The notes: a model not told the origin generated them from the letters alone. 64,000 bases of DNA from an uncultured Candidatus Poseidoniales archaeon (GCA_964015875.1 CAXHEV010000002.1:141307-205306), one strand, 5' to 3'. Numbered from the stretch's first letter, positions 3,992-56,148 are shown. Numbers and translations: made by a program.

Positions 3992-4004
3992 AAAAGAAAG
4001 TGGG

Positions 4005-4322
4005 AGGGCCTAAGGTGGACGCTCGTTCCTTCTGGCCAAGCCCACACACTTCCTCCATCCCGTGACCCCACAGCACTCATGGCCCCAGGTAGGGCTGCTC
4101 CGTTCCCGGCCTGACCTGTTCCCCCGGTTATCCAATTGCTGTTCCCCTCCGGGAACAGTTCTCGGCACCCGAGTCATGTGGGGGCGAGACATCAATGTCC
4201 GCGTATGGAAACCAAAAGGCCGCTTTCGCCGCCCAAAGGCGTTCGGTCCACCATAAAGTCGATTTGTGGTACAGGGTACGTCTAGCTCCCCACCTATCCC
4301 GTGCAATCCTGCAACTGGCTCT
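4005..4322 (-). ncRNA. ffs: Signal recognition particle RNA (archaeal 7S RNA); the ends are approximate
   Basis: The reverse strand contains the universal helix-8 motif ACAGGUCAGGCCG-GGAA-CGGAGCAGCCCUACC (plus-strand 4088-4120), comparable to E. coli 4.5S CAGGUCAGGUCCGGAAGGAAGCAGCC. A second GNRA-capped helix (GGCGGCGAAAGCGGCC) is present. The block is GC-rich and about 310 nt long. AT-rich TATA candidates (AATAATT, TTCAAATA) lie at 4322-4357, and an oligo-T tract (CTTTCTTTTC, 3991-4000) follows the 3' end. The ORFs predicted here on both strands look spurious. Confidence 0.8.
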
Positions 4323-11481: not shown

Positions 11482-12630
11482 ATGGGTATAATCAAACTTG
11501 AACAACGAGTAAGATACCCGCCTTTTGAACCTAAGCGGTTCTCACCAAAATCACTGCCAATTGCAACATCAAGTGAAACGATTGCCAGAAATGTGGATGC
11601 TGTTGACATTGCAGACACGTTGACAAAATTCCCACCAAGTTTCCACCTCGGGAGTGAAGAAGATTGGCTGGTCGAACATAGGTATGTGTATGATGGAGAG
11701 ATTTACGACGATTCCAACATCAAGCGTGAACAATCATTCCTTGAGACAGGGCAAATACCTATCATCGTTAAGCGACAGCGCCGAGGATGGTACCTCACTC
11801 CAAATCCGGTGCATAGAGCAGTTCGACGGTTTTTGTCTTTTTCAGTCATGGTGCTGCTCTTGGCACTCGCATATCTGTTCATAGAGCCGTTATTGAGTTC
11901 GATGGGAATCAAGGGCATAGGGACTGGAACCGTTCGCATAGGTTTACTCGATTACCCCGCCTTAGCCATCATTGTAGTACCACTTCTCTTTGCACCATTG
12001 CTCATGAGGGTAGGCGCAAATTTTGTAGATCTTGTTTCTCAACGACGATTTTTGCAATCTGCACCAAACAACCCTGTGATTGAATGTATTCAGAGTCCAC
12101 AAGCGGGGCAGCCATTGCACGTGAATGTTCAGTTTGAAGAGAAACCAGACAACTGGGGGAAGATCGAAGTAATGTGGCGAGTGGGTATCCTTCCACCAGC
12201 GAGGGAAGAGTTGTTCAGTCGATTGGGCCGCTCCCCCGAAGCACAGCCTCCACCAGGTCTCACGACGCCGCTACCACATCATTGGGAAATTGGACTCGAT
12301 GACGGTACAGGTGGCGGCGAAGAATCACCAATGGAACATCATGAAGTGAAGGGTGGACTATTTCTCCGACCGATGAGGGTGATGGAATTTGGCGGTCGGG
12401 TGCCGTGGACTTCAGCAACAATGGAGTTGGATCCTCCACCAAATGAGTGGCCAGGGACCGTTTCTTCATCGTTAATTCGAATTCACTGGGAAATCATCAT
12501 TCGCATCGAAAGAAAAAACGCTGGTTCCCTAATGTTCGTCGAGCCACTGGCCGTCGCTCATCCCGCAAAGCCATCATCCTTCACTAGGCTGCCAACCAAT
12601 GATGGTCGAACCGAATCAGATCAATTGTGA
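11482..12630 (+). CDS. Hypothetical membrane protein
   Basis: 382 aa, 10 nt after the upstream stop. It has two or three central hydrophobic helices (FLSFSVMVLLLALAYLFIEPLL, YPALAIIVVPLLFAPLLM). No family recognised. Confidence 0.6.
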   Translation: MGIIKLEQRVRYPPFEPKRFSPKSLPIATSSETIARNVDAVDIADTLTKFPPSFHLGSEEDWLVEHRYVYDGEIYDDSNIKREQSFLETGQIPIIVKRQRRGWYLTPNPVHRAVRRFLSFSVMVLLLALAYLFIEPLLSSMGIKGIGTGTVRIGLLDYPALAIIVVPLLFAPLLMRVGANFVDLVSQRRFLQSAPNNPVIECIQSPQAGQPLHVNVQFEEKPDNWGKIEVMWRVGILPPAREELFSRLGRSPEAQPPPGLTTPLPHHWEIGLDDGTGGGEESPMEHHEVKGGLFLRPMRVMEFGGRVPWTSATMELDPPPNEWPGTVSSSLIRIHWEIIIRIERKNAGSLMFVEPLAVAHPAKPSSFTRLPTNDGRTESDQL

Positions 12631-12669: not shown

Positions 12670-15600
12670 ATGAATCGACCGGCCTTGCCTGCACTGCTTC
12701 TCGTCGCGTTGCTCGGACTTGCTGGGTGTTTCGGTGCAGTCGAGCCTGAAGAGCCCGAAGTCATCGATCAACCCATCGTACTCGAAGAACCAACGGTCGA
12801 ATGGATTTCTCCACCGGGTACAATCGAACTCGATGGTACTCCAATCATTCTTCAAATTAAATTCCAAAGTGAAGATTGGGCATTGACTCCATCAATTGTC
12901 ACACCCGATTTCGATCAAGTATCAGCCTACGGTTGGTCACAAACTATGCAGGGTTTTTCTCTTGAGTTTCTACCATCCATGCTAGGCAACTATACCGTGA
13001 ATGTGGGTATTGAACCTGTAGAACAGGACGCAATTGCCCCAATAGTCTCATCCCTTGTGCACACTATTGAGGTTGTAGAACCTGTTGCCCAAGCTCCGGT
13101 GTTAAACGCCCCAGTGCGAGAACTACTTGAGGAACCCAACCTGCTCTGGTTTGAAGGGTCTGTGGAGCATCAAGATTTGGATACATGTGCGATGGAATAT
13201 TCGGTTTCTGATGGCAGCAGTGGTTCAATCACAATCAAGGAAGATGGCTCATGGAAGGTCCTCCTTGATTTCACAGAAATTGAAGATACGATGACGGTGA
13301 CTACAATCGCCACATGCGGAAAGTTCACTCAACTTTCTGATACAACAGGGACATTAGTCATGCTGGAGGGGGGCGGTGCGGATGCTGATGGTGACGGAAT
13401 CCAGGATACTACCGACCGTTGTCCAAATGGAATAGGTGAGGCTGAGGGATGGAAGTCAAATCAAAATACGGATAAGGACAATGATGGTTGTCGCGATGTT
13501 GACGAAGATGATGATGATGACAATGATGGCGTGTTAGACGTGCATGACCTTTGTCCAAATTCCCTCGGTTGGATTAGTTCTCCTGATGCAGATTTTGATT
13601 CTGATGGGTGTCATGATGCTGATGATGACGAAGACGATGACAATGATGGTGTTCTCGATGTTGACGATTCTTGTCAATATGGTCGGGTTGGTTGGAGTTC
13701 TACCTTGTACACCGATTGGGATGGGGATGGATGCCTCGACCTTGATGAGGACAATGATGACGATAACGATGGTGCACTTGACGAAGTGGACCTTTGTCCT
13801 AAAGGTTTCACATCATGGCTAAGAGACACAAATACTGATTTCGACAATGATGGTTGCGCAGATGCCTCAGAAGATGACGATGACGACAATGATAATGTCG
13901 AAGATGTCAATGCCACGGGTGCCCCCCTCGATCTTTGCCCTCGCACTCCCGCCAATGCCACAGACGTTGACGAATTTGGTTGTGCAGCCGTTCAAAGAGA
14001 CAGTGATTCCGATGGCGTCAATGATGCCGAGGATGTTTGTGAAGGAACACCAGAAGGTTTGATTGTCAACGAAGTTGGCTGTGCTGACATTGATGGCGAT
14101 GGAGTATCGGCGAACAACGATGTATGTCCAAATTCTCCAAACCGATGGACTATCGACGAAACTGGTTGTGCTGTCGTACAATTACCTGTGTCATGGCAAA
14201 CAGCTTCAAGCCTCAATGGGCCGCTGCAAACCGTTCCACATTTCTCACTACCAACGTTAGATGGGACGTTTTATTTCCAACAACAGTGGACCGGCTACGA
14301 CATCTACTTTTTCCTCTTCAAGTACACTGATGGTTCCGGAAACTCGAATGCTGGAACCTGGGGACAAAGCCCCGGCCCCTTCATCCGTGCTCTTCCCAAC
14401 AATGTTCACCTGTTCTATGGTTCGTTCGATACCACATACCACAACGATGTGATCAATCAAAAAGCCGCTGTTGAAAATGCGTTAAACCCTGATGAAGAGC
14501 AATTGTGGGCAGACCGTATCCACTACATCGACCAAAGAGCCGGAACCCTTAGCGGAGGTATTGGTGATATGATTACGAGTTTCAACAATCCTCGATACAT
14601 GGGAATTGATCGGTTCCAACAGGCACGAGAAACTGGCTCTCTCTATGCGTGGACGTCACAATCAAATGACCCTACGCACCTGATTCACGAACCACATCAA
14701 TGGAACGCCGAGTTCCCTGTGGAAATACGAAGAAGTGATCCCGCCATCGAGGAGGTCACACTTTGGGACTTCGATCGACACTCTGGCGGATGGGGTGGAG
14801 GTTTCACATCTGCACAATCTGCTGAATTCCCATCGAATTTAACCACATATGACACGCTGGAAGTCTACCATGAACATGCATGTGATGAGCGTTCAAACAG
14901 ATACCAAAAATCAGACGGGTCCTATGGTGGCTGTCATGAGTGGGATTACGAGGCAAATCTCAGAATTTGCGATCGTGATAACGCTTCATCGTGTGGCACA
15001 GAATTCATGCGATGGATTACAACGTACGGTCGAGAAGGGAAGTGGCTGACTGACATTTCACCATACCTCTTCATGCTTGAGAATGATGATAATAGGACGT
15101 TCAAGTATCGAGGTGCCAACAAAGGCGACCTTACCATTACCTTGTTGTTCAGTGATTGGGGTTCGAATGAACGAGGAGATGAAGCAACGTTTGCATTCAC
15201 TGGGGGGCAATTCGATGGAACATACAACGACGAATCAATCTACACGAGACAGCTCAATTTCACCGTGCCATCTTGGGCAACACGAGTTGAGATTGTCGCA
15301 ACAATTACCGGTCATGGCTTTGGACAGGATAATGCGAACTGTGCAGAATTTTGCGACCATGAACATCACTATTCTATGAATGGTTATTCGACATATGAGT
15401 GGCACCCAATTGTAAGTTCCAATGAAGGTTGTGAAAATGAAGTGTCGAATGGCGTTGTCGCCAACCAATTTGGTTCGTGGCCGTTTGGAAGAGCGGGATG
15501 GTGTGCAGGACAAGATGTCAAACAATGGACACACGATATCACATCGTGGGTTGATACTACTGGCGCTAATAACCACTTGACCTACCAAGGGTTGTTGAAC

Positions 15601-15699
15601 GGACAAGAATATGTCCCATCAGACGGCATTGGAAACGGGCAAAGAAACATTCATGCAGAAATTTGGATTGTATTCTACAATTCGACCGACATTGAATGA
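12670..15699 (+). CDS. Secreted lipoprotein with TSP3 calcium-binding repeats and a C-terminal PNGase F-like (peptide N-glycanase) domain
   Basis: 1009 aa. It has a signal peptide with a lipobox-like LLGLAGC. About 12 DxDxDGxxDxxDxCP-type repeats span 13381-14135. The C-terminal ~315 aa aligns block by block with Elizabethkingia PNGase F (CHEWDYEANL vs CDEWDRYANV; ITGHGFGQDNANCAEFC vs ISGWGHA..GCAEWC; GSWPFGRAGWCAGQDV vs GNWAPDRAGWCPGMAV). Confidence 0.85.
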   Translation: MNRPALPALLLVALLGLAGCFGAVEPEEPEVIDQPIVLEEPTVEWISPPGTIELDGTPIILQIKFQSEDWALTPSIVTPDFDQVSAYGWSQTMQGFSLEFLPSMLGNYTVNVGIEPVEQDAIAPIVSSLVHTIEVVEPVAQAPVLNAPVRELLEEPNLLWFEGSVEHQDLDTCAMEYSVSDGSSGSITIKEDGSWKVLLDFTEIEDTMTVTTIATCGKFTQLSDTTGTLVMLEGGGADADGDGIQDTTDRCPNGIGEAEGWKSNQNTDKDNDGCRDVDEDDDDDNDGVLDVHDLCPNSLGWISSPDADFDSDGCHDADDDEDDDNDGVLDVDDSCQYGRVGWSSTLYTDWDGDGCLDLDEDNDDDNDGALDEVDLCPKGFTSWLRDTNTDFDNDGCADASEDDDDDNDNVEDVNATGAPLDLCPRTPANATDVDEFGCAAVQRDSDSDGVNDAEDVCEGTPEGLIVNEVGCADIDGDGVSANNDVCPNSPNRWTIDETGCAVVQLPVSWQTASSLNGPLQTVPHFSLPTLDGTFYFQQQWTGYDIYFFLFKYTDGSGNSNAGTWGQSPGPFIRALPNNVHLFYGSFDTTYHNDVINQKAAVENALNPDEEQLWADRIHYIDQRAGTLSGGIGDMITSFNNPRYMGIDRFQQARETGSLYAWTSQSNDPTHLIHEPHQWNAEFPVEIRRSDPAIEEVTLWDFDRHSGGWGGGFTSAQSAEFPSNLTTYDTLEVYHEHACDERSNRYQKSDGSYGGCHEWDYEANLRICDRDNASSCGTEFMRWITTYGREGKWLTDISPYLFMLENDDNRTFKYRGANKGDLTITLLFSDWGSNERGDEATFAFTGGQFDGTYNDESIYTRQLNFTVPSWATRVEIVATITGHGFGQDNANCAEFCDHEHHYSMNGYSTYEWHPIVSSNEGCENEVSNGVVANQFGSWPFGRAGWCAGQDVKQWTHDITSWVDTTGANNHLTYQGLLNGQEYVPSDGIGNGQRNIHAEIWIVFYNSTDIE
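13381..14135 (+). repeat. In-frame tandem array of TSP3 / Asp-rich calcium-binding repeats
   Basis: Recurring DNA and protein units, for example DNDGCRDVDEDDDDDNDGVLDVHDLCPNS, DSDGCHDADDDEDDDNDGVLDVDDSCQYG, DGDGCLDLDEDNDDDNDGALDEVDLCPKG and DNDGCADASEDDDDDNDNVEDV. GAT/GAC-rich. Confidence 0.8.
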
Positions 15700-18347: not shown

Positions 18348-19886
18348 TCAATCCTTTTTTCGTTGCCACTTTGGCAATGAAGTTTCTTGCTCTGTTGCAC
18401 CCATCCTGGCCATCAAAAAGCCAGCAATTGCAATAATAGAAACAAGCGCTATTGTGAATAGGTTGCCACCAAGCATATCTTCTGAACCTGAAACAACGTC
18501 TTGGGGCACTGTCATTGAGAACGCAATTGTGCTGTTCGCTCCATCATCATCCAAAACAATGAGCATCATCTCATAGGTTCCTGAAGCATTTATTTTTGAG
18601 GATTCGAACGTTGTGCCTCCAGTTTGAACCATCACTCCGTCAACATACCATCGGTAGAGCAGTCCATTTTGATCGTTCAGTGTATCGATTGTTTTACTTG
18701 CGTTGAGGAGCCAAGTTTCAGTGTTTGGAACAACGATGGTATCTTGGTGTTGTATCTCGAGACCGTCAAGAGCAAGATGAGCGCTGGGTGGTGAATTCTC
18801 AACCATAAAGGTGGAAGTGGTTCGAATGAGGTGTCCTGCAGAATCCCTAACGAGAAGAACAACTGTCCATTCTCCTGCCTCATCTGGCAAAAGTGAAACG
18901 CTAGATTCTGTAATGAATGATTCAGATGCAAATGCAGATTGTTGACCACTTGGATTGATCTTCGACCATGTGAGCACCTCAGATCCACCTTGATATCCAT
19001 CACTCACTTCTGCAGTAAAAAGCACTTCTTCGTGTTCATAGACTGTTCCTTCGGCGACGAGGTTCAGATCATCAGTCATTGAATGTGACTCGTCAGTAAT
19101 CGAATTGCTAAGCATAACAGATGGTGCTTGTCGATCGATTTGAACAATGAAGAAAACCTCATTCGATGCTGTAAGGGTTCTGTCCTCAAGAAGAATGGAA
19201 AACATCCAAAACCCATCGTCTAGAGGGAACGTAGTTGCGTTGAAAAGCAACTGGAGGTGATTTGAGATACTGGAATTCAGTTTTATTGGCTGTGCTTCTT
19301 TCAAGCACACCGAATTGGGGGCTTCACAGACACGAACATTGAGCACAGAATCATCGAGCGTACCCAAGGGGGATATCGCATCAATATCTACAACAAGATT
19401 GCCGGTAGTGAGAAGGAAGGTGGGTTCGCTGAGAGTTTCGCGATGATGAAGGACTGGATAGTGATTTGAATGACCAAGATACAAAACAATCGTTGCGATT
19501 GGTGTGCTACCATCCGATTCTGAAAGATACACCTCTAGCACACATGTGCAATTCATTCCACTCACATCGACAACCAGTGTCCAACTCCAGTGCTGTTCGC
19601 CTGATGGAGTCACGCTCGTAAGATAGTCACCACTCTTTAGTCCGCTCTCATTCAACCCATTACCAAAATCAACGATTTGCCACTCGACCTGTTGAAGGGC
19701 TATATTCGCAGTACCATTGAGCGATAATATTTCACTGGCATTATGACCGTTATTTTGGTAGAATTCAAATTCCGTGACACTATTCCCAGACTCAGAGGCA
19801 GATGTGATTGAGGGTGTTATGGCCACAGTGATTAGAAGGAACACGACGGAGACAAGCGATGCACGTGATGCAAAAAGCCTGCTCAT
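18348..19886 (-). CDS. Cell-surface protein with a signal peptide, Ig/PKD-like beta-rich repeats and a C-terminal TM anchor
   Basis: The start is taken at MSRLFASRASLVSVVFLLITVAITPSITSA (signal-like); the open frame extends to 19970. The C-terminus is LFTIALVSIIAIAGFLMARMG followed by a basic tail. No catalytic motifs seen. Confidence 0.65.
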   Translation of the reverse strand: MSRLFASRASLVSVVFLLITVAITPSITSASESGNSVTEFEFYQNNGHNASEILSLNGTANIALQQVEWQIVDFGNGLNESGLKSGDYLTSVTPSGEQHWSWTLVVDVSGMNCTCVLEVYLSESDGSTPIATIVLYLGHSNHYPVLHHRETLSEPTFLLTTGNLVVDIDAISPLGTLDDSVLNVRVCEAPNSVCLKEAQPIKLNSSISNHLQLLFNATTFPLDDGFWMFSILLEDRTLTASNEVFFIVQIDRQAPSVMLSNSITDESHSMTDDLNLVAEGTVYEHEEVLFTAEVSDGYQGGSEVLTWSKINPSGQQSAFASESFITESSVSLLPDEAGEWTVVLLVRDSAGHLIRTTSTFMVENSPPSAHLALDGLEIQHQDTIVVPNTETWLLNASKTIDTLNDQNGLLYRWYVDGVMVQTGGTTFESSKINASGTYEMMLIVLDDDGANSTIAFSMTVPQDVVSGSEDMLGGNLFTIALVSIIAIAGFLMARMGATEQETSLPKWQRKKD

Positions 19887-19948
19887 GGTAGACTCTCGGC
19901 TCCCTTCAGTCATGAATCTTAGGCCGATATGTTCGTCCTGATTCTTGC

Positions 19949-22900
19949 TCATTGAGCGAATGGATCGCACAATTCACCTTGGCCAGGGAAGCTGGTTGGG
20001 TCACGTGGGTTCGTATCCCACTTGTATTCACAGTAGTTCACGTGCCCATCACCATCTTGATCAACCATACGGTCCGCTGCATCGAACGGATCGAACTTGA
20101 AGTGGAATTCCCATCCAGTGGCCATACCGTCATTGTCATGGTCTTGGTAGTAGACTTCTGGACCGTCATTCCAATCATCTCCATCAGTATCGTTGCTGAT
20201 TGGGTTGGTTCCGTTTTGGAATTCTTCAAAGTTGGTGTAATTCTCAAGGTTGTCGTAAAATTTCTGTCCGTCTGGAGAATCTGGGTCGATGTTGCACTCT
20301 GAATTCGTTGTGTCATTGTATCCAGGGCAGTATTTCTTAACCAGTCCAGTGCGATTCAAACCATCGTCGTCAGGGTCTTCTAACCCGTCAAGAATACCAT
20401 CTAAGTCACTGTCTGGCATCGATGGATCAAGGACCCCACGCGCACCATAAGCACTCACAGAGGCGTTGTCAACCAGTCCTGCTTCAAGAGCAAGACCTGA
20501 GTAGTAAACCTCCCAGCCATCAGGCAGCATATCGGAATCTGTATCATCGTCCACCGGGTTTGTGTTCCACTTGTCTGGCGCTTCTGCTCCGTTTGCCAAG
20601 GAATCATTGTCGATGTCGTACGTGTCATCTTTCAGTGAATCGAGGGATGGATCTAATGCCCAGCGACCATTACATGAACAGAATGAATTTTCTGGCATGG
20701 AAAAGCCTGTGAGGTTCATTTCAGAAACTTGGTACTTCGGCTCAATCACGAAACCACCAAGGTTGTTTTGCCAGACATATCCGCCAGGATTCATGGTGCA
20801 ATCACTGGTTTGTGATGGCACACAACCGGGTCGTTCCCATGTTGATGTGGCCACCCAAAGGCTGTGAGAATTGGTGTTATCTTCAGTGGATTTGACCTGC
20901 ATCTCCCAACCGTCAAGCATCCCGTCTGCATCAGTGTCGTTGATGAGTGGGTTGGTCGGATTTTGGAACGGACGTGGCACGAAGAGAACTTCATTACCAT
21001 CGATGAGGCTATCGTTGTCTGTGTCAGAATTGTTAGCATGTGTGAGGAAATTATCCTTGCCAGCGATGACCTCTTCTCCATCTTCTAGTCCATCGTTATC
21101 GGTATCAAACATGCATGGGCTTGTGAAGTAAGCAACTCCTTCCCAAGAGAAACCTGCGAGCGCTTCTGTTTGGTCACCAAGACCGTCACCATCGGTGTCG
21201 GGGTTTGACGCATTTGAGCCGCCAGTACAGACGGTTGCGAATTCTGTGTAATCGGAAAGTCCGTCTTCATCCGTGTCAAAGAGTCCGGGATCTGATGTGA
21301 CCCACGTTCGTACAACACCGTTGTTCACAACAAGAATTTCCCAACCCATGACCTCAATACCGTCAATGAGTCCATCACCATCTGTGTCAGGATTCAGGGG
21401 GTCTGTGGAACGGCCGTCAATGATGCCGTCTCCATCCCTATCACGGGCATTGTATTCCATCAAGTTGGTGAATTGTTCCTCGGGTTCGACAATTTCCATC
21501 CATGTGAAAAGTCGTGATTCAACAGCCATTCCGAGCGAAACGTGAATCTCATAGACATAGCCAGAAACTGGAGCTACCATAGGAATGGTCTGCTTGTTTC
21601 CACCTGCAAGAGTAATTTGTGCTCTTGCCACTGTTGAATTTGCGTCAACCCATTGGTCTTCCACAACATCGATACCAATGACAACAGCTGTGAATTCAAG
21701 AGTTTCATATCGCACAGCGCCATCGCCATCTGCATCCCAGCCATCGTGATCTGGGTCGAGGTCTCCGTTTGCACCATCCCTTGGATGAAGGCCATTCGTT
21801 GATTCCCAGCCATCAGGCATGCCATCAAGGTCGGTATCCATACGCCATGGGGAAGTGAAGTTCGTGGGGCCAAAGATGTTCGCCACTTGGTATTCTTCGT
21901 AGTTGTTCATTCCATCTTCGTCCCAATCGCCGTAGCCATCAGAGGCGTTTGCTGGATTCAGGGTTTCGAGAGCGTTATTGTTCGGTTGATCGAGAACATT
22001 CGAATAGCAGAATTCGAATCCATCTGGCATTCCATCACCATCGGTATCCCAGTCAGAAGGTCCGTTGAGAAGCCCATCACCGTCCATGTCCATCATGAAC
22101 CAAGACCGGTCTTGGTCTTGGAATGGCGCTGTTCGAGTGACTGATTCAAGCAGTGGGATGTTGCAGTTTTCACCAACACCAACAAAGAGTCCCACGGATA
22201 CGTTTGACACTTCAATAATGTCGTCGATCAAGTCCATGTCCGAATCACGTGCAGTTGGGTTTGTTCCGAATGTTTCTTCCTCGAAGTTTGCAAGTCCATC
22301 GTCATCTGTGTCGAGGACCATGTCACAGGAATGTGCTCCAAGTGAATTGGCAAGATCATCCCAATCTGCAACATCACCTTCGCCATTGAATCGTGTCGAA
22401 AGGGTGTCCTCCATAGCCTGATCGAGGAGCAAGCAATCCCAGTTTCCGTTGAGTGGGTCGAAGAGGGTCACATCGCCGCCAGGAGTTTGAACGGTCATGG
22501 TGTAAAGTGACTCCCAGCGGTCGTTGAGCCCATCATTATCAGTGTCAGAGCGTTGAGGGTCAGTACCAAGTTCTTCCTCAATTTTGTTGATCAAACCATC
22601 ACGGTCAGGATCTCCATTTGGCCCTTGGCTTGGGTCTGGCCAGGAATCTGTTTCGTTGGCGATGTTGGCGTCTTCGGTGTCAGCTTCGCCCGGATCTTGG
22701 AGTAAGTCCTCAGATTCGCCATTGTCCAGAGGATTCAGGCCGTGGTCTACTTCCCAACCATCACTCATGCCATCTTTATCGGTGTCCGGATCTTCTGGAT
22801 CTGTTCCATATTGAGTGTTTTCAAGAACGTCTGACAGACCATCGCCATCAGTATCGATTGCGGTTCCTAACGCAGTGCCGCTACCAAACAAGTCGTCTTC

Positions 22901-23047
22901 TGCAGCGCTCTCATAACCACCGATGCCCTCACTGGTTTGGAAGTATCCAGAAAGACCAACGAAAATGGAACCGAAAATCAAAGTCGAAACAATAGCAGCG
23001 TAGGCCATTTGGTTGTGATTTAGCGACATGAAGAACACCCAGCACAT
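19949..23047 (-). CDS. Giant extracellular TSP3/calcium-binding repeat protein (N-terminally anchored)
   Basis: 1032 aa. An N-terminal hydrophobic anchor (AYAAIVSTLIFGSIFVGLSG) is followed by dozens of D-x-D-x-D-G-(L/M)-x-D-G-W-E units (DTDGDGLSD, DTDKDGMSDGWE, DTDNDGLNDRWE, DMDGDGLLNG, DTDLDGMPDGWE, DSDLDGILDG ...). Confidence 0.8.
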   Translation of the reverse strand: MCWVFFMSLNHNQMAYAAIVSTLIFGSIFVGLSGYFQTSEGIGGYESAAEDDLFGSGTALGTAIDTDGDGLSDVLENTQYGTDPEDPDTDKDGMSDGWEVDHGLNPLDNGESEDLLQDPGEADTEDANIANETDSWPDPSQGPNGDPDRDGLINKIEEELGTDPQRSDTDNDGLNDRWESLYTMTVQTPGGDVTLFDPLNGNWDCLLLDQAMEDTLSTRFNGEGDVADWDDLANSLGAHSCDMVLDTDDDGLANFEEETFGTNPTARDSDMDLIDDIIEVSNVSVGLFVGVGENCNIPLLESVTRTAPFQDQDRSWFMMDMDGDGLLNGPSDWDTDGDGMPDGFEFCYSNVLDQPNNNALETLNPANASDGYGDWDEDGMNNYEEYQVANIFGPTNFTSPWRMDTDLDGMPDGWESTNGLHPRDGANGDLDPDHDGWDADGDGAVRYETLEFTAVVIGIDVVEDQWVDANSTVARAQITLAGGNKQTIPMVAPVSGYVYEIHVSLGMAVESRLFTWMEIVEPEEQFTNLMEYNARDRDGDGIIDGRSTDPLNPDTDGDGLIDGIEVMGWEILVVNNGVVRTWVTSDPGLFDTDEDGLSDYTEFATVCTGGSNASNPDTDGDGLGDQTEALAGFSWEGVAYFTSPCMFDTDNDGLEDGEEVIAGKDNFLTHANNSDTDNDSLIDGNEVLFVPRPFQNPTNPLINDTDADGMLDGWEMQVKSTEDNTNSHSLWVATSTWERPGCVPSQTSDCTMNPGGYVWQNNLGGFVIEPKYQVSEMNLTGFSMPENSFCSCNGRWALDPSLDSLKDDTYDIDNDSLANGAEAPDKWNTNPVDDDTDSDMLPDGWEVYYSGLALEAGLVDNASVSAYGARGVLDPSMPDSDLDGILDGLEDPDDDGLNRTGLVKKYCPGYNDTTNSECNIDPDSPDGQKFYDNLENYTNFEEFQNGTNPISNDTDGDDWNDGPEVYYQDHDNDGMATGWEFHFKFDPFDAADRMVDQDGDGHVNYCEYKWDTNPRDPTSFPGQGELCDPFAQ

Positions 23048-43243: not shown

Positions 43244-45763
43244 TCAATCTTCAAGGTCAGCATCAATCGCATCGTCAATGACGAGCACCAGTGGTGTATC
43301 TTCACGTGAATTACGAAGTGTATATCCAACGCCAAGTGCGACCAGTAATGCGAACACTCCGAACACCATTGATGCCCCAGTAAATTCTGCAAAGACCTCA
43401 CCAAGAGCGCTAAAGAAGCTCCGTTCTTCTTCCTCAATCATGACCTTTGGCTGAATCATTTGCATGAGTGCTGATTGATTGTAGACTGGGCGTGTGAAGG
43501 TTAACTGTCCTTCATAGGAGTCATCCCAGTTGTCGGAACGAGTTGTTGGGTCGAGATCTGAATAGAAATCTGGGCGCTGGGGGATCGAGATATCTACTGG
43601 TGTGGCGAGATCGAGTGTGAGGACGACATCGACAGTGTAAGGAATACTAGCTTCGAAGAATTCTGCATCTTCAAACAGACCGAGGAAGGCCATTGCTTGG
43701 CCAGTCACGTCAAATTCTGCCCATGCACCCCAATGAGATGAGTCGACATCCAAGTCATAAATCCAAGTGTCAGAAACACGGGTACCTTGACCTTGTGCAT
43801 CATTGGAACCGTCTTCACCGAGATCAATTTCCATTTGCAAATTACCAATTTGCGCCGTTTCAACATCGACCTCTGTAGGAGTGAATTGCACCATCATGTT
43901 GTAGGTTCCATTGGGGATCCAAACATAGTGGGCATCTTCGGTGTAATAGACCAATCCATCTTGACCATTGTTGAAATTATTCCAATCACCCTTCCAAGCA
44001 TGACGAACCCGATCGGTGTCAACGTTGAGCGATTCCTCAGTACGAAGAGCATCGTAAATTTCGAAAGCATCCCAGACCGTGTATTCTGGGTTGTCAACAA
44101 TTCCGTCGTCGTTTTGATCCCGCATGAGTTGTAGCGTGCGAGCAAGTGCTACCGCAGCATCAACATCGGTAAGACCATGTCCAACACGCCAGTCATGACA
44201 GCGTCCTGTGGCGGAGAGATAACAATCTGCAGGAATGTCACTACAAGCATCATCGGCATTGCCATCTTCACAAGAATTCGCCATGCCATCATACTTAGCA
44301 GTCAATTCCAAGATCAATTCAAGTTCATGAACTCGAGAATAATTGGCAGTATCCCAATCATCGAATTGTCCGTAAGCGGCAGTGCCTTCGCCACCGACAA
44401 GAGAATCGCCCTCATCGTGATCTTCACGATGGTAATCTGCGACGGTAAGCGATGGTGCTACGTTGAGCATTAGACCTGCCATTCCACCGACGTGTGGTGT
44501 CGCCATACTGGTTCCTGAAATGGACATGTAGTACAGATCACCTTGAGTCTTGGTCGAGGCGTCAATAGCTGTACCGCGAGGAGCTGTTGCCCAAATATCT
44601 CGACCTGGAGCTCCGACATCTGGCCATGTATGCATTTGGTTCATGCACCCTCGACTGGAAAAAGAAGTAACGGCTGTGCCATCGTGAGTAAGGGCTGCAA
44701 CTGAGATTGCTGAAGGCGTATTTGCATAGACATTGGTCTTCAATCCACCACCACACTCACCACCGTTGCCGCCTGAGTTCGACGCAGCGAAGATGACGGC
44801 AACACCATTCTCGTAGGTGAGCATGTCAGTGAGTTGAGCGATGACTCCGTTTGGATCATAATCACCATCTGTGCCCCAGGAATTCGAAACGACCCTGATA
44901 TGGTACTCATTTTGGCCTGGCATCGAATGCTGATACGTCCATTCTAATCCTTGTTCAGCAGCAAATATCGAAGCACCATCACCGGTACCAAGTGCTACCA
45001 ACTGGCCACCTTTGGCGACACCAGCACGACGACCGGCGCTTGCATCACCATTTCCAGCGATGGTACCACCAACGTGAGTCCCGTGGCCAGAAGATGTATC
45101 TGAGTTGCGTGTTTCAGTCCATACACCATCCCACTTTGCTGAGTACAATGTTTTCTCACCTGTCCACGGGCCGAGATAATCATAATCTGGGTGCCCGGCA
45201 TCGACTCCTGTGTCGAGATCGACGATTGCGGTTCCATCTCCATCCCATTCGCTAAAGGCCATGTCTGTGTCGAAGGCCATCGTTCCGTCGGTGTTGATAA
45301 TGGCACGATGCCACGAGGTTGTTGCATTGACCACATGAGTTGTCTCATGCATCATGACACCCGGGAGAGGTTCCCCTCCCCATTCTGAAGGGAGGTAGAA
45401 AAATTCCAATTCTCGGTTGAGTTCGAGATATTCCGTTCTCGACCATTCTGATATGACACGGACATTGGTGGCTGAAGCTTCCAACAAACCGCCATCGACC
45501 AGTGGAGCCTCGCCAAGAAGTTCTGCTCCGTGGTCTTCAAGCCACTCTCGATCTTCAGAAGTCACTTCGCTGTTCAGTTGGTACACAACTGATAATGTCG
45601 CATCAAATGGGGAAGTTTCCAATGCTTCTTCCAAAGCTTCATCCATTCGCTCAAAATCACCGGCTGGATTCATTGAGGACATGAGTGGTGCTGCTGAGGC
45701 ACCGACCATGAGCAATTGAAGGCCCAAAACAATCAAGATGCATCGTGCAGAAGAGGAGCGCAT
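43244..45763 (-). CDS. Secreted, membrane-anchored subtilisin-like serine protease (S8)
   Basis: Signal peptide (ILIVLGLQLLMVGASA). Catalytic triad blocks AIVDLDTGVD, SGHGTHVGGTIAG and SGTSMATPHVGGMAGL. A long C-terminal beta-rich extension ends in a TM anchor (MVFGVFALLVALGVGYTL). Confidence 0.9.
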   Translation of the reverse strand: MRSSSARCILIVLGLQLLMVGASAAPLMSSMNPAGDFERMDEALEEALETSPFDATLSVVYQLNSEVTSEDREWLEDHGAELLGEAPLVDGGLLEASATNVRVISEWSRTEYLELNRELEFFYLPSEWGGEPLPGVMMHETTHVVNATTSWHRAIINTDGTMAFDTDMAFSEWDGDGTAIVDLDTGVDAGHPDYDYLGPWTGEKTLYSAKWDGVWTETRNSDTSSGHGTHVGGTIAGNGDASAGRRAGVAKGGQLVALGTGDGASIFAAEQGLEWTYQHSMPGQNEYHIRVVSNSWGTDGDYDPNGVIAQLTDMLTYENGVAVIFAASNSGGNGGECGGGLKTNVYANTPSAISVAALTHDGTAVTSFSSRGCMNQMHTWPDVGAPGRDIWATAPRGTAIDASTKTQGDLYYMSISGTSMATPHVGGMAGLMLNVAPSLTVADYHREDHDEGDSLVGGEGTAAYGQFDDWDTANYSRVHELELILELTAKYDGMANSCEDGNADDACSDIPADCYLSATGRCHDWRVGHGLTDVDAAVALARTLQLMRDQNDDGIVDNPEYTVWDAFEIYDALRTEESLNVDTDRVRHAWKGDWNNFNNGQDGLVYYTEDAHYVWIPNGTYNMMVQFTPTEVDVETAQIGNLQMEIDLGEDGSNDAQGQGTRVSDTWIYDLDVDSSHWGAWAEFDVTGQAMAFLGLFEDAEFFEASIPYTVDVVLTLDLATPVDISIPQRPDFYSDLDPTTRSDNWDDSYEGQLTFTRPVYNQSALMQMIQPKVMIEEEERSFFSALGEVFAEFTGASMVFGVFALLVALGVGYTLRNSREDTPLVLVIDDAIDADLED

Positions 45764-53681: not shown

Positions 53682-54898
53682 TGAATTTCAAAAAACTAAG
53701 AGAAGATTTCCCTACACTTCGTGCTGATCCTGATTTGGCCTATCTTGACAACGCTTGTGTCACACTCAAGCCTGATTCAGTCGTTGATGCAATTCATGAT
53801 TACTACACCACAAGTCCTGGTTGCGGTGGTCGATCTGTGCACAGGTATGGAACAAAAATCTCCCAACACACAGCAGCAGCCCGAGCGAAGTTAACGCGGT
53901 TCATCAATGCCGGCGATAAGAACGAAGTTGTATTCACACGCAATGCTACACAGTCCCTCAATCAGGTCGCTCATGGTATGCAGTGGAATGAAGGCGATGT
54001 TGTCTTAACCACCGACCGAGAACACAACTCCAACCTTGTACCTTGGTTGCAACTCGAACGGGAACAAGGAATTGACCACCGGGTTGTCGCCTCGAATGCA
54101 GACAACACGTTTGACATCGAGGCATTTGAGGCAGCTTGCGCTGATGCTGGTTCAAAGCTCAAATTGGTCTCAGTGAGTCATGTCGGTAATTTAGACGGTG
54201 TCAGCCTTCCAGTCAAAGAGATTGCAAAAATAGTTCACGATCATGATGCCCTAATTTGCGTTGATGGAGCGCAATCTACACCTCATATGAACGTCGATGT
54301 CCAAGATTTGGATATTGATTTCCTCGCCTTCTCGATTCACAAAATGTGCGGACCATCGGGGATGGGTGGATTGTGGGGTCGCTACGAACTCTTAGACAAC
54401 CTCCGAACGATTCAAGCAGGCGGGCAAACCGTACAGACCTCGACCTACGATTCAATTGAGTGGGCAGCTCCACCTGCACGGTTCGAGGGTGGTCTCGGGC
54501 ATTTCTCAGGGATGGTTGCAACAGGAGCGGCAATCGATTATCTCTCTGGTTTGGACATGACTGCTGTGAAGGAGCATGAAATCAAATTGAACCGGATCAT
54601 GAGCACCACCGTGAGTGGTCTCTCAGGTGTCGATATTATTGGCCCTGCTGATCCGTCCTTGCGAGGTGGTATTTGCTCTATCCTCATGCACGACTTACCC
54701 GCACATGACATCGCTCTACTGCTTGATGAAGCAGCGGGTGTCATGGTGCGAAGCGGCCAACACTGCGTGCATTCATGGTTCAACAGCAAAGGGCATGAAA
54801 ATGGTTCGCTGAGGGCTTCAGCATATTTCTACAACACCGAAGAGGAAGCAAAATTGTTTGCTGATACCCTAGAAGAAGCAGTTCAAGCATTTAGTTGA
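53678..54898 (+). CDS. sufS: Cysteine desulfurase (SufS/CsdA-like, class V aminotransferase)
   Basis: YLDNACVTLKP, FTRNATQSLN, the PLP-lysine block FSIHKMCGPSGMGGLWG and the active-site Cys block RSGQHCVHSW. Confidence 0.9.
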   Translation: MMNFKKLREDFPTLRADPDLAYLDNACVTLKPDSVVDAIHDYYTTSPGCGGRSVHRYGTKISQHTAAARAKLTRFINAGDKNEVVFTRNATQSLNQVAHGMQWNEGDVVLTTDREHNSNLVPWLQLEREQGIDHRVVASNADNTFDIEAFEAACADAGSKLKLVSVSHVGNLDGVSLPVKEIAKIVHDHDALICVDGAQSTPHMNVDVQDLDIDFLAFSIHKMCGPSGMGGLWGRYELLDNLRTIQAGGQTVQTSTYDSIEWAAPPARFEGGLGHFSGMVATGAAIDYLSGLDMTAVKEHEIKLNRIMSTTVSGLSGVDIIGPADPSLRGGICSILMHDLPAHDIALLLDEAAGVMVRSGQHCVHSWFNSKGHENGSLRASAYFYNTEEEAKLFADTLEEAVQAFS

Positions 54899-54903
54899 TT
54901 ACA

Positions 54904-56148
54904 ATGGATAAAACAGATTTTTGGGAAGATGCTGAACATCAGCATCAACCGCTAAGTGAGGTTGTTCCACAACCATTGCCTCCAATCCCACCACTCAATC
55001 AAGGCCAGGTGCAAGAAGCAAACCTCCATCCAAACACTATGCAACCTCAACTCGATGAGGACATTCAAACGGCCAAGAAAATTGTGAGCTTCTCAATTAC
55101 ATTGATTATGATTGTCAGCCTTGCATACACTGGTTTCATTCTTTTTGACGGTGATGCCCTTACTGGCTACCGGCCTGGAGATGCGGCTTTAGATTCACAA
55201 GAGGTCTACCGTGATTTGATTCAAGCCGATGAGGTTAACCTTGATGGTACAGGTGTCACCGTGTGCATCGTTGACTCAGGACTCAACCCCGACCACCAAG
55301 ATTTGGATGGACTGACGATTTCCAAGTGGCAAGATTTTGTTGGCGGAGCGAACAACCCGTACGACGATCATGGTCACGGTACAAGCATGGCTGGCATCCT
55401 CGTTGCAGACGGGTGGATGAAGGGAATTGCACCGAAAGTCGAATTACTCGTCGCTAAAGCGCTTGCAGAAAACGGTACAGGTGACGATACGGTTGTCGCT
55501 GAAGCCATTGACTGGTGTGCTGATAATGGAGCACATATCATCTCCTTGTCGCTTGGCGGGGCACCAGGAATCTTACCTTTCAATTTTGGAACTGGCAGGT
55601 CATCTGCACAAGCAGCAGAAGACGCAATGGAATCTGGAATCTTTGTAATCGCTGCAGCCGGAAATGACGGAGGTGCTGATGATGACGGTGATGTTGCTAC
55701 GCCTTGCAGTGAAACGGCTGTCATTTGTGTCGGTGGTGTGACTCAATCAGGTTCGCACTGGGAAGGGTCCTCCATTGGTGATAATAATGGCCGAATCTGG
55801 CCGCTTCCAATCATTACGCCTCGTTCCGACCCGCACAAAAAACCAGAACTTGTCGCACCGGCGGAATCCGTGGCAGTGATCAACAAAGAAGGAACATGGT
55901 CGCTGAGCGATGGAACAAGTGCTGCAACAGTGTACGTCACAGGCGCCATTGCATTGTTATTGCAAAACAATCCCGAGCTTGCGGCAAATGGGACTCAGGA
56001 CAACATTGCCAACATCAATCAAGTCAAGGAATGGATTGAACAAACAGCCCTTCCAAGGCCAACTCAAGAAGGTCATGATGACGAGTATGGTTATGGGCTC
56101 TTGCAAATCAAAGCACTCATTGATGCGGCGAACCCTGAGGAATCATGA
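54904..56148 (+). CDS. Membrane-anchored subtilisin-like serine protease (S8)
   Basis: One N-terminal TM (IVSFSITLIMIVSLAYTGFILF). Triad blocks VCIVDSGLNPDHQDL, HGHGTSMAGIL and SDGTSAATVYVTGAIALL. The track start, TTG 54895, overlaps the sufS stop. Confidence 0.85.
   Translation: MDKTDFWEDAEHQHQPLSEVVPQPLPPIPPLNQGQVQEANLHPNTMQPQLDEDIQTAKKIVSFSITLIMIVSLAYTGFILFDGDALTGYRPGDAALDSQEVYRDLIQADEVNLDGTGVTVCIVDSGLNPDHQDLDGLTISKWQDFVGGANNPYDDHGHGTSMAGILVADGWMKGIAPKVELLVAKALAENGTGDDTVVAEAIDWCADNGAHIISLSLGGAPGILPFNFGTGRSSAQAAEDAMESGIFVIAAAGNDGGADDDGDVATPCSETAVICVGGVTQSGSHWEGSSIGDNNGRIWPLPIITPRSDPHKKPELVAPAESVAVINKEGTWSLSDGTSAATVYVTGAIALLLQNNPELAANGTQDNIANINQVKEWIEQTALPRPTQEGHDDEYGYGLLQIKALIDAANPEES

Follow-up and report, generated by a model that had tools for sequence, protein, structure and literature searches.

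A lipobox-bearing relative of PNGase F and Ngly2 in Marine Group IIa archaea

The 64,000-nucleotide stretch of DNA analysed here (the window; CAXHEV010000002.1:141307-205306 of assembly GCA_964015875.1, from an uncultured Candidatus Poseidoniales archaeon) contains an open reading frame (ORF) for a protein of 1009 aa (12670-15699, plus strand; stop codon TGA at 15697-15699) whose product ends in a genuine relative of the peptide:N-glycanases PNGase F and Ngly2, with the same two-jelly-roll fold. A prediction made from the DNA alone (the sequence-only reading) had placed a PNGase F-like domain at 14750-15696, which corresponds to residues 694-1009 and lies wholly within this ORF. From its N-terminus, the protein consists of a lipobox signal, two Ig-like domains, cysteine-rich thrombospondin type 3 (TSP3)-like calcium-binding repeats, a thioredoxin-like domain and the PNGase domain. 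Within a known family of enzymes the product is a new member, bearing a tether specific to the archaeal clade, and is predicted to have peptide:N-glycanase activity. We consider it probable, with some reserve, that this protein is a surface-tethered PNGase of Marine Group IIa (MGIIa) archaea that strips N-glycans from exogenous glycoproteins by means of an old, bacterially derived module.

An archaeal signal recognition particle RNA (3998-4304, minus strand, 139.4 bits) identifies the window as archaeal, in agreement with the sequence-only reading, and the host is an MGIIa (Poseidoniaceae) archaeon. At 93.6% completeness, its 2.0-Mb genome (88 contigs) encodes the N-glycanase domain once. A public protein with 97% identity is titled 'MAG: peptide-N-glycosidase F-related protein [Candidatus Poseidoniaceae archaeon]'; the gene already carries a PNGase-related name in NCBI, its catalytic family is well known, and nothing in its mechanism appears to be new.

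Sequence and structure of the PNGase domain

The double jelly-roll PNGase domain spans residues 691-1009 (14740-15696, plus strand) and was recognised by Pfam, by phmmer, by a family profile and by a predicted structure. The Pfam family PF09113 (N-glycanase_C) matches residues 853-972 at 70.6 bits (cut-off 25, E 1.5e-19) and reaches 74.7 bits in a scan of the whole host genome. When residues 511-1009 were compared with all PDB sequences by single-sequence phmmer, the sole match was zebrafish Ngly2 (9lwg_A, E 5.4e-43; 141.9 bits across residues 691-989), and Elizabethkingia PNGase F went unseen at E <= 10. A family profile made from an alignment (A1) of 47 homologues matched Ngly2 at E 3.1e-93. 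Its matches to PNGase F (chains 3pms, 1pgs and 1pnf) had E values between 2.8e-19 and 1.2e-18 and took in residues 4-279 of the chain, a stretch that covers both jelly rolls. Four blocks that the sequence-only reading had set against PNGase F (C.EWD..AN, ..ITxY.., I(S/T)G(W/H)G...CAE(W/F)C and G.W...RAGWC.G) all pair as written in this profile alignment, and the DEWD of PNGase F reads HEWD in the archaeal protein, its first Asp being replaced by His. NCBIfam returned no specific model for the protein, and its TSP3-type and signal matches fell far below threshold.

In a Foldseek search, an AlphaFold model of residues 511-1009 (pLDDT 89.1, pTM 0.88) retrieved 9lwg_A (E 3.6e-36) and PNGase F (E ~1e-14; template modelling score 0.69-0.71 on the length of PNGase F). 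VIA-align superposed the model on 9lwg_A over 458 residues (Z 38.1, root-mean-square deviation (rmsd) 2.5, 28% identity) and on PNGase F over 277-281 of 310-314 residues (Z 25.2-25.7, rmsd 2.7-3.1), with the remaining PNGases at Z 12-21 and PHM at about 8. The predicted domain is thus borne out by its Pfam score, by its profile match (E ~1e-18) and by the superposition of the predicted structure on PNGase F (Z 25).

Compared with PNGase F of Elizabethkingia meningoseptica (PDB 1PNF, 1PNG, 1PGS, 3PMS), the archaeal protein retains equivalents of D60, E206, W59, Y85, R248 and W251 and, by Cys positions, counterparts of the three disulfides, whose pairing we take to be as given in the PNGase F structural literature. 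However, identity is only ~18%, the archaeal protein adds a Cys pair (C767/C775) and its C738-C755 loop is longer, and PNGase F itself lacks a thioredoxin-like domain and a stalk. PNGase F-II and other Bacteroidota PNGases (4R4X/4R4Z, 7ZGN, 9VLA, 3KS7) share the catalytic fold, but are farther from the archaeal protein than PNGase F (profile E 5e-4 to 0.3) and carry other N-terminal accessory domains.

Catalytic residues

D759 (codon 14944-14946) aligns with D60 of PNGase F and D421 of Ngly2, and E893 (codon 15346-15348) with E206 and E555, respectively; both are invariant in 47/47 aligned homologues, and the sequence-only reading was correct that the catalytic acidic residues are retained. 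W758, H882, R941, W944 and the eight Cys of the PNGase domain are likewise invariant or nearly so. Excerpts of the Ngly2 report identify D421 and E555, the equivalents of PNGase F D60 and E206, as catalytic, their alanine mutants being inactive, and describe W420, H422, H546 and W480 as facing the substrate, with W480A almost abolishing activity; they also give W59, R61 and W191 as the chitobiose contacts of PNGase F (Honda et al., J Biol Chem 2025, PMC12753239). In that numbering, to which the 9lwg PDB chain index adds 25, W758 is the equivalent of Ngly2 W420 and of PNGase F W59, which is thereby kept, and H882 is the equivalent of Ngly2 H546, at the position of PNGase F W191. Y786, R941 and W944 align with Y85, R248 and W251 of PNGase F, for which we assume functional roles from the structural literature on that enzyme.

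This conservation bears on the alternative that the module, as an adhesin or lectin, mainly binds the N-glycans or chitobiose of particles or algal cells, the TSP3 stalk serving for attachment and catalysis being secondary or lost. Excerpts of Rinke et al. (2019; PMC6461757) read Poseidoniales 'thrombospondin genes' as adhesion factors, the combination of Ig-like domains and calcium repeats resembles that of adhesins, and jelly rolls are described as common carbohydrate-binding folds (PMC8812541, in excerpt). We nevertheless regard a binding role as very unlikely, since invariance of the catalytic Asp and Glu together with the nearby Trp, His, Arg and Trp throughout the alignment is what purifying selection on catalysis predicts, and orthologues from four families keep both EWD and CAEFC.

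A conserved unit shared with Ngly2

The PNGase domain is preceded by a domain of thioredoxin-like (Tx-like) type without redox cysteines (residues 511-690) and a linker helix (14200-14739, plus strand), identified from the profile and the model. The family profile matches the Tx-like domain of Ngly2 at 34.4 bits, the 511-1009 model aligns to 9lwg_A from model residue 2 onwards, and model residues 1-171 superpose on peroxiredoxin/Bcp folds at Z ~7-8. Residues 506-690 contain no Cys and thus no CxxC. The conserved unit is therefore ~500 residues long, beginning ~180 residues earlier than the unit of ~315 residues first proposed. Four positions of the Tx-like domain (D647, R653, G656 and E681) are invariant in the 47 homologues, archaeal and bacterial alike, and may be structural, form a dimer contact or take part in substrate binding. 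They fall within residues 647-681 (about 14608-14712), where an 'IDRFQ..RE' stretch occurs.

Ngly2 (zebrafish si:dkey-256h2.1, PDB 9LWG) is a lysosomal acid peptide:N-glycanase according to the excerpts of Honda et al. (PMC12753239), and resembles the archaeal protein in that a Tx-like domain devoid of CxxC is followed by a linker helix and then by the double jelly-roll PNGase domain. It differs in carrying a PA domain inserted in the Tx-like domain. Pfam gave no match to PA (PF02225) in the archaeal protein, and the aligned Tx-like stretches lie ~70 residues apart in this protein versus ~208 in Ngly2. The absence of PA makes the protein a PA-less prokaryotic form and not an Ngly2 orthologue. 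In Ngly2 the inserted domain lines one side of the substrate cleft and contributes to the dimer interface (PMC12753239, in excerpt), and its lack could leave the archaeal active site more open. In addition, H422 of Ngly2 is Tyr in the archaeal protein, W480 has no clear counterpart, and the lysosomal location of Ngly2 contrasts with a predicted extracellular, lipobox-tethered location at the end of a 490-residue stalk. Nor is the archaeal protein the nearest branch to Ngly2, as PA-bearing homologues score higher against 9lwg (232 bits for the PA-bearing P0279, versus 151 for the archaeal protein and 134 for the Myxococcota protein P0153). By these scores, Ngly2 is simply the sole solved member of a wider Tx-like plus PNGase group and not a specific sister of the archaeal enzyme.

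The same PA-less module, with the invariant residues, occurs in bacterial 'peptide-N-glycosidase F-related proteins' (Myxococcota such as Vulgatibacter and Sandaracinus, forms with a type IX secretion system (T9SS) tail, and a Deinococcus radiodurans homologue). The bacterial forms are mostly 530-700 aa long and have a plain signal, EGF-like modules or a T9SS sorting tail, whereas a lipobox, two Ig-like domains and a TSP3 stalk ahead of the module were found in the archaeal clade only, among 20 proteins scanned. Elsewhere in those 20 homologues, architectures include PA (3/20), EGF-like (4/20), TSP_3 (3/20), a T9SS tail (1/20) and LamG (1/20). One protein outside the archaeal clade, P0252 (1280 aa), has the module first (residues 180-648) and strong TSP_3 repeats after it (100.2 bits), an order which suggests that the combination of PNGase and TSP3 arose more than once or was shuffled.

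Lipobox signal, Ig-like domains and stalk

The N-terminal signal peptide (12670-12729, plus strand) ends in the lipobox L17-A18-G19-C20 (Cys codon 12727-12729), which follows a hydrophobic stretch, as the sequence-only reading had noted. The archaeal lipobox motif is [L/V/I][A/S/T/V/I][G/A/S]C, and lipobox proteins and the AliA/AliB enzymes are known from Haloferax (PMC12462473, in excerpt). The Gly-Cys pair is close to invariant in 29 aligned Poseidoniaceae orthologues, and every orthologue retrieved from four families of the class combines a signal and xxGC with 7-11 TSP3-like motifs, EWD and CAEFC. In a crude scan of the host genome, lipobox-like N-termini were seen in 31 of the 1580 non-overlapping ORFs that reach 100 aa, mostly L(A/S)GC and mostly followed by small or acidic residues, and lipobox tethering therefore looks like a general export mode of this archaeon. 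The protein is probably lipid-anchored through Cys20, as judged from the motif. The conserved lipobox signal points to the extracellular location that had been proposed, and the eight Cys of the catalytic domain fit an oxidising milieu outside the cell.

A short linker and two tandem Ig-like beta-sandwich domains follow (residues 21-235; 12730-13374, plus strand), assigned by AlphaFold and Foldseek. Pfam found no match in this region, which was modelled as all-beta with a pLDDT of 93.2 and which retrieves generic tandem-Ig structures (titin Z1Z2, NCAM, S-layer and adhesin domains) at E ~1e-7. It is the fastest-evolving part of the protein (16-39% identity to more distant members), whereas the C-terminal module is highly conserved.

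The stalk consists of cysteine-rich, TSP3-like calcium-binding repeats (residues 236-510; 13375-14199, plus strand), recognised by motifs and Pfam. Residues 236-505 contain 10 DxDxD..D motifs and 14 Cys and are 31% Asp plus Glu. The TSP3 stalk of the sequence-only reading is therefore supported by motif and composition, but Pfam TSP_3 reaches only 23.8 bits over three stretches, under its cut-off of 25. NCBIfam gives a weak match to the TSP3-type protein MtsC, and a precomputed PF02412 match exists for some orthologues. Elsewhere in the window, a 1032-aa surface-type protein (19949-23047, minus strand) matches the bacterial TSP3 repeat PF18884 at 37.4 bits, and the adjoining gene (18348-19970, minus strand) encodes a 540-aa protein that has a hydrophobic segment at its N-terminus and matches no Pfam family; both may be further calcium-repeat surface proteins of the same envelope.

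Distribution and origin

PF09113 was found in 115/201 genomes of the order Poseidoniales (39/61 among those at least 90% complete), and intact ORFs of ~1000-1100 aa in the same number, 115/201. By family, the order-wide counts are 88/99 in the host's own family Poseidoniaceae (f1), 2/2 in f2 and 24/99 in f3 (MGIIb). A scan of the phylum found 53/301 genomes in total, with 41/47 in f1, 8/23 in f3 and 3/8 in f4, a family of the same class, and none among 222 Thermoplasmatota genomes of 43 other families. Besides Poseidoniaceae, its carriers are some genera of Thalassarchaeaceae and one sister family within the class. Within f3 the pattern follows genera, small-genome genera having 0/13, 0/15, 0/14, 0/12 and 0/9 and others 8/8, 8/10 and 3/3; in incomplete genomes absence is no proof, though the genus pattern is consistent. 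The single copy and the intact ORFs indicate selection on the gene.

Some exceptions were seen. Two same-genus orthologues (G011:C78:4753-6237 and G019:C3:193393-194877) have one in-frame stop each, TAA and TGA, respectively, and in a one-contig genome (G041:C1:1320852-1321214) the frame around the domain is 560 aa long versus ~1020 elsewhere; pseudogenes, decay at strain level or errors of assembly may account for these cases. Genome contigs yielded 487 related loci, and of the best 80 of these 79 are archaeal-titled, with the titles Poseidoniales, Poseidoniaceae, Thalassarchaeaceae or the older 'Euryarchaeota'. The remaining one (L059), in a record named 'Verrucomicrobiales bacterium isolate ARS100', is a copy of the archaeal module at 70% identity and is most likely an archaeal contig mis-binned into a bacterial metagenome-assembled genome.

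The wider family comprises 1086 clusters at 50% identity with E <= 0.001, including 223 with E <= 1e-30. Searched as a stand-alone protein, the 499-residue module gave 808 matches of 274-874 aa, of which the top ones after Poseidoniales fragments share 33-39% identity over 96-98% of the query. The named top non-archaeal matches are Myxococcota, Myxococcales, Vulgatibacter, Sandaracinus, 'Deltaproteobacteria' and Pseudomonadota; a few of the top matches have T9SS tails, and Deinococcus radiodurans is the sole carrier of the domain among 14 control genomes. For this subfamily, the view of PNGase F as in essence an enzyme of Bacteroidota cannot be upheld, as the closest solved relative is Ngly2 and 10/10 named non-archaeal relatives carry Myxococcota-type or Pseudomonadota labels.

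Phylogenetic trees were determined from 186 rows (reduced from 345 at 75% identity) with FastTree and from 48 chosen rows with a quick IQ-TREE run. The 19 archaeal-type rows of the first form one clade (support 100, stem length 0.51), as do the 12 archaeal rows of the second (SH-aLRT 100), which nest in a starred 25-row group whose named rows include Vulgatibacter, Myxococcales and Myxococcota; the PA-bearing rows make up a clade of their own (support 98, IQ-TREE). A phylogeny against Bacteroidota PNGase F had been proposed with the sequence-only reading; the trees built here are unrooted and recover a single archaeal clade, with Myxococcota-named rows in the group around it.

The archaeal lineage probably got the Tx-like plus PNGase module once, long ago, from Myxococcota-related bacteria, and the module was afterwards probably lost in several streamlined MGIIb genera. 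One old acquisition followed by losses is suggested by the phyletic pattern, by the conserved upstream gene order in f1 and f3 and by an ordinary GC content. A recent transfer was considered and rejected on account of the GC content (0.473 for the gene versus 0.499 for the genome) and the class-wide sharing of the gene. The horizontal transfer proposed in the sequence-only reading is therefore plausible as to a bacterial origin, but it was not recent.

Genomic context and expression

The flanking genes are housekeeping genes encoding topoisomerase I, a geranylgeranyl-reductase-like flavoprotein, a CofH/Mqn-type radical SAM enzyme and serine hydroxymethyltransferase, together with a protein with two transmembrane segments and an M24 Xaa-Pro aminopeptidase. 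The 'neighbouring peptidase-rich metabolism' that had been suggested is an overstatement, as the aminopeptidase, which lacks a signal peptide, is the only nearby peptidase and the two S8 subtilases of the window (43244-45763, minus strand, and 54895-56148, plus strand) lie 28 and 39 kb from the PNGase gene. The 839-aa subtilase has a clear signal peptide, and both are candidate partners in extracellular protein degradation, unlinked to the PNGase gene.

Directly upstream, 39 bp away and co-oriented, the two-transmembrane gene (11482-12630, plus strand) encodes 382 aa with no Pfam match. It occurs in 180/201 Poseidoniales genomes and adjoins the PNGase gene wherever both are present (f1, f3). 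It was considered as a functional partner and rejected, because it is also present in PNGase-less genera (g5 11/13, g7 15/15, g23 12/12) and so is not a dedicated partner.

In marine RNA libraries, six rows, five of them recorded as RNA, contained 5-8% of the gene's sampled words, and three rows of the same study contained almost none. A high-depth pile-up at 13500-13528 corresponds to a low-complexity Asp-codon repeat common to other organisms.

Proposed function and alternatives

We hypothesize that a Sec-type signal ending in the lipobox Cys would tether the protein to the membrane, and that, judging from the domain types, the two Ig-like domains and a rigid, calcium-loaded, disulfide-rich TSP3-like stalk would keep the catalytic module off the cell. 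The module itself, in which a redox-dead Tx-like domain is joined to a double jelly roll of the PNGase F/Ngly2 type, would hydrolyse the amide between Asn and the core N-acetylglucosamine (GlcNAc) of the N-glycans that exogenous glycoproteins or glycopeptides carry, such as those of phytoplankton, freeing the glycan and converting Asn to Asp. The deglycosylated polypeptide would then be open to the cell's secreted peptidases and to peptide uptake. Homology, fold and catalytic residues are direct observations, from which the activity, the substrate and a nutritional role are inferred.

The glycoside hydrolase families GH20, GH92, GH38 and GH18 were not found in the 93.6%-complete host genome, which gives no sign that released N-glycans are consumed. 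This absence, the secreted S8 subtilase in the window and peptide degradation in Marine Group II (MGII), which excerpts of Rinke et al. (2019; PMC6461757) list among MGII traits, suggest that peptide rather than glycan would be the prize. The authors of the Ngly2 study likewise suggest deglycosylation ahead of proteolysis (PMC12753239, in excerpt).

The same absence of glycan-catabolic enzymes is compatible with an enzyme acting on its own or a neighbouring cell surface, where S-layer or other surface glycoproteins would have their N-glycans trimmed or recycled in the course of turnover, remodelling or release from aggregates. Such a role would suit a lipobox that ties the enzyme to its producer's surface, the housekeeping neighbourhood of the gene and the eight N-x-S/T sequons of the protein itself, and N-glycosylation is established as common on archaeal surface proteins. 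Yet a stalk of ~490 residues holds the active site a long way from the membrane, many MGIIb genera that presumably still glycosylate their surfaces do without the gene (0/13, 0/15, 0/14, 0/12), and archaeal N-glycan linkages are established as often not being GlcNAc-Asn. An own-surface substrate is, in our judgement, unlikely.

Several observations weigh against the deglycosylation of exogenous glycoproteins that we favour. First, the N-terminal Pfam family PF09112 (N-glycanase_N) is not among the two Pfam families listed at E <= 1, so that only the PF09113 half of the Pfam comparison suggested with the sequence-only reading gave a match above the gathering score. PF09112 is also missed by 19/20 scanned homologues, P0246 alone reaching it at 25.2 bits; as the domain is present by profile and fold and one of 20 homologues scores, the missing match reflects model sensitivity or a property of the subfamily. 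Second, glycan-contact positions are changed relative to PNGase F (R61 to Y760, W191 to H882 and W207 to F894), and the stretch near PNGase F E118/W120 and Ngly2 W480 has no convincing alignment. These differences imply that glycan specificity or even substrate class could differ. Third, the Ngly2 authors tie His at the W191 position to an acid optimum (PMC12753239, in excerpt), which would be odd in seawater. Fourth, the gene lies outside any glycan- or peptide-utilisation cluster, and contigs from four of the six RNA-library rows are short (31-375 nt), at a depth of ~2-4 and 92-100% identity, and do not show transcription of this gene. Fifth, the trees are unrooted, most of their bacterial rows are unnamed, and some archaeal labels were assigned from similarity and architecture. 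Finally, no assayed enzyme of the archaeal clade or of the PA-less bacterial form was found in the open-access literature searched.

The second of these points also raises the possibility of a same-fold amidase with another substrate, such as a different glycosylamide or a modified peptide, in place of GlcNAc2-Asn glycans. The three substitutions and the non-alignable E118/W120 region would fit such an enzyme, as would a conserved Tx-like domain with invariant D647, R653 and E681 of its own, and the sister fold family PHM acts on peptides and not on glycans (PMC8812541, in excerpt). We consider this quite unlikely, because Ngly2, with His at W191 and a changed R61, has been proven to act as a PNGase and tolerates a broad range of glycans (PMC12753239, in excerpt), and because all characterised proteins above Z 12 are PNGases, the exceptions being the uncharacterised Bacteroides structures 3ks7 and 4qhb ('putative PNGase F'-type). 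As Ngly2 is active despite its own changes there, the R61 and W191 positions do not decide membership.

Implications for Marine Group II archaea

In the open-access literature searched, no paper tying MGII or Poseidoniales to a PNGase was found, and looking for the domain family by name led to the Ngly2 report only, although supplementary gene tables of MGII genome studies, which lie outside this search, may list the gene; the passages of Rinke et al. (2019) drawn on here (PMC6461757) name thrombospondin genes and do not mention a glycanase. A more far-reaching proposal, which we hold only tentatively and at somewhat less than even confidence, is that this is the first archaeal peptide:N-glycanase, near-core in Poseidoniaceae (88/99 sampled genomes), that MGII archaea, if it is active on N-glycans of eukaryotic type, deglycosylate algal glycoproteins on a large scale, and that the PA-less module is the stock from which animal Ngly2 arose. 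If so, free N-glycans would enter seawater, Asn would become Asp, and glycoprotein nitrogen would be opened to proteolysis, giving an organism to a step in the turnover of marine dissolved and particulate organic matter to which none is currently assigned. The PA-less Tx-like plus PNGase module of bacteria and archaea would then be the prokaryotic source of animal Ngly2. Because one module carries the known catalytic residues, the protein is a simple recombinant target, and a PNGase with different glycan or pH preferences may be of practical interest. MGII archaea are uncultured and very abundant in the sunlit ocean, and ideas on their role come chiefly from genes for peptidases and transporters; a conserved surface PNGase would add a concrete step to it, the removal of N-glycans that makes glycoproteins digestible.

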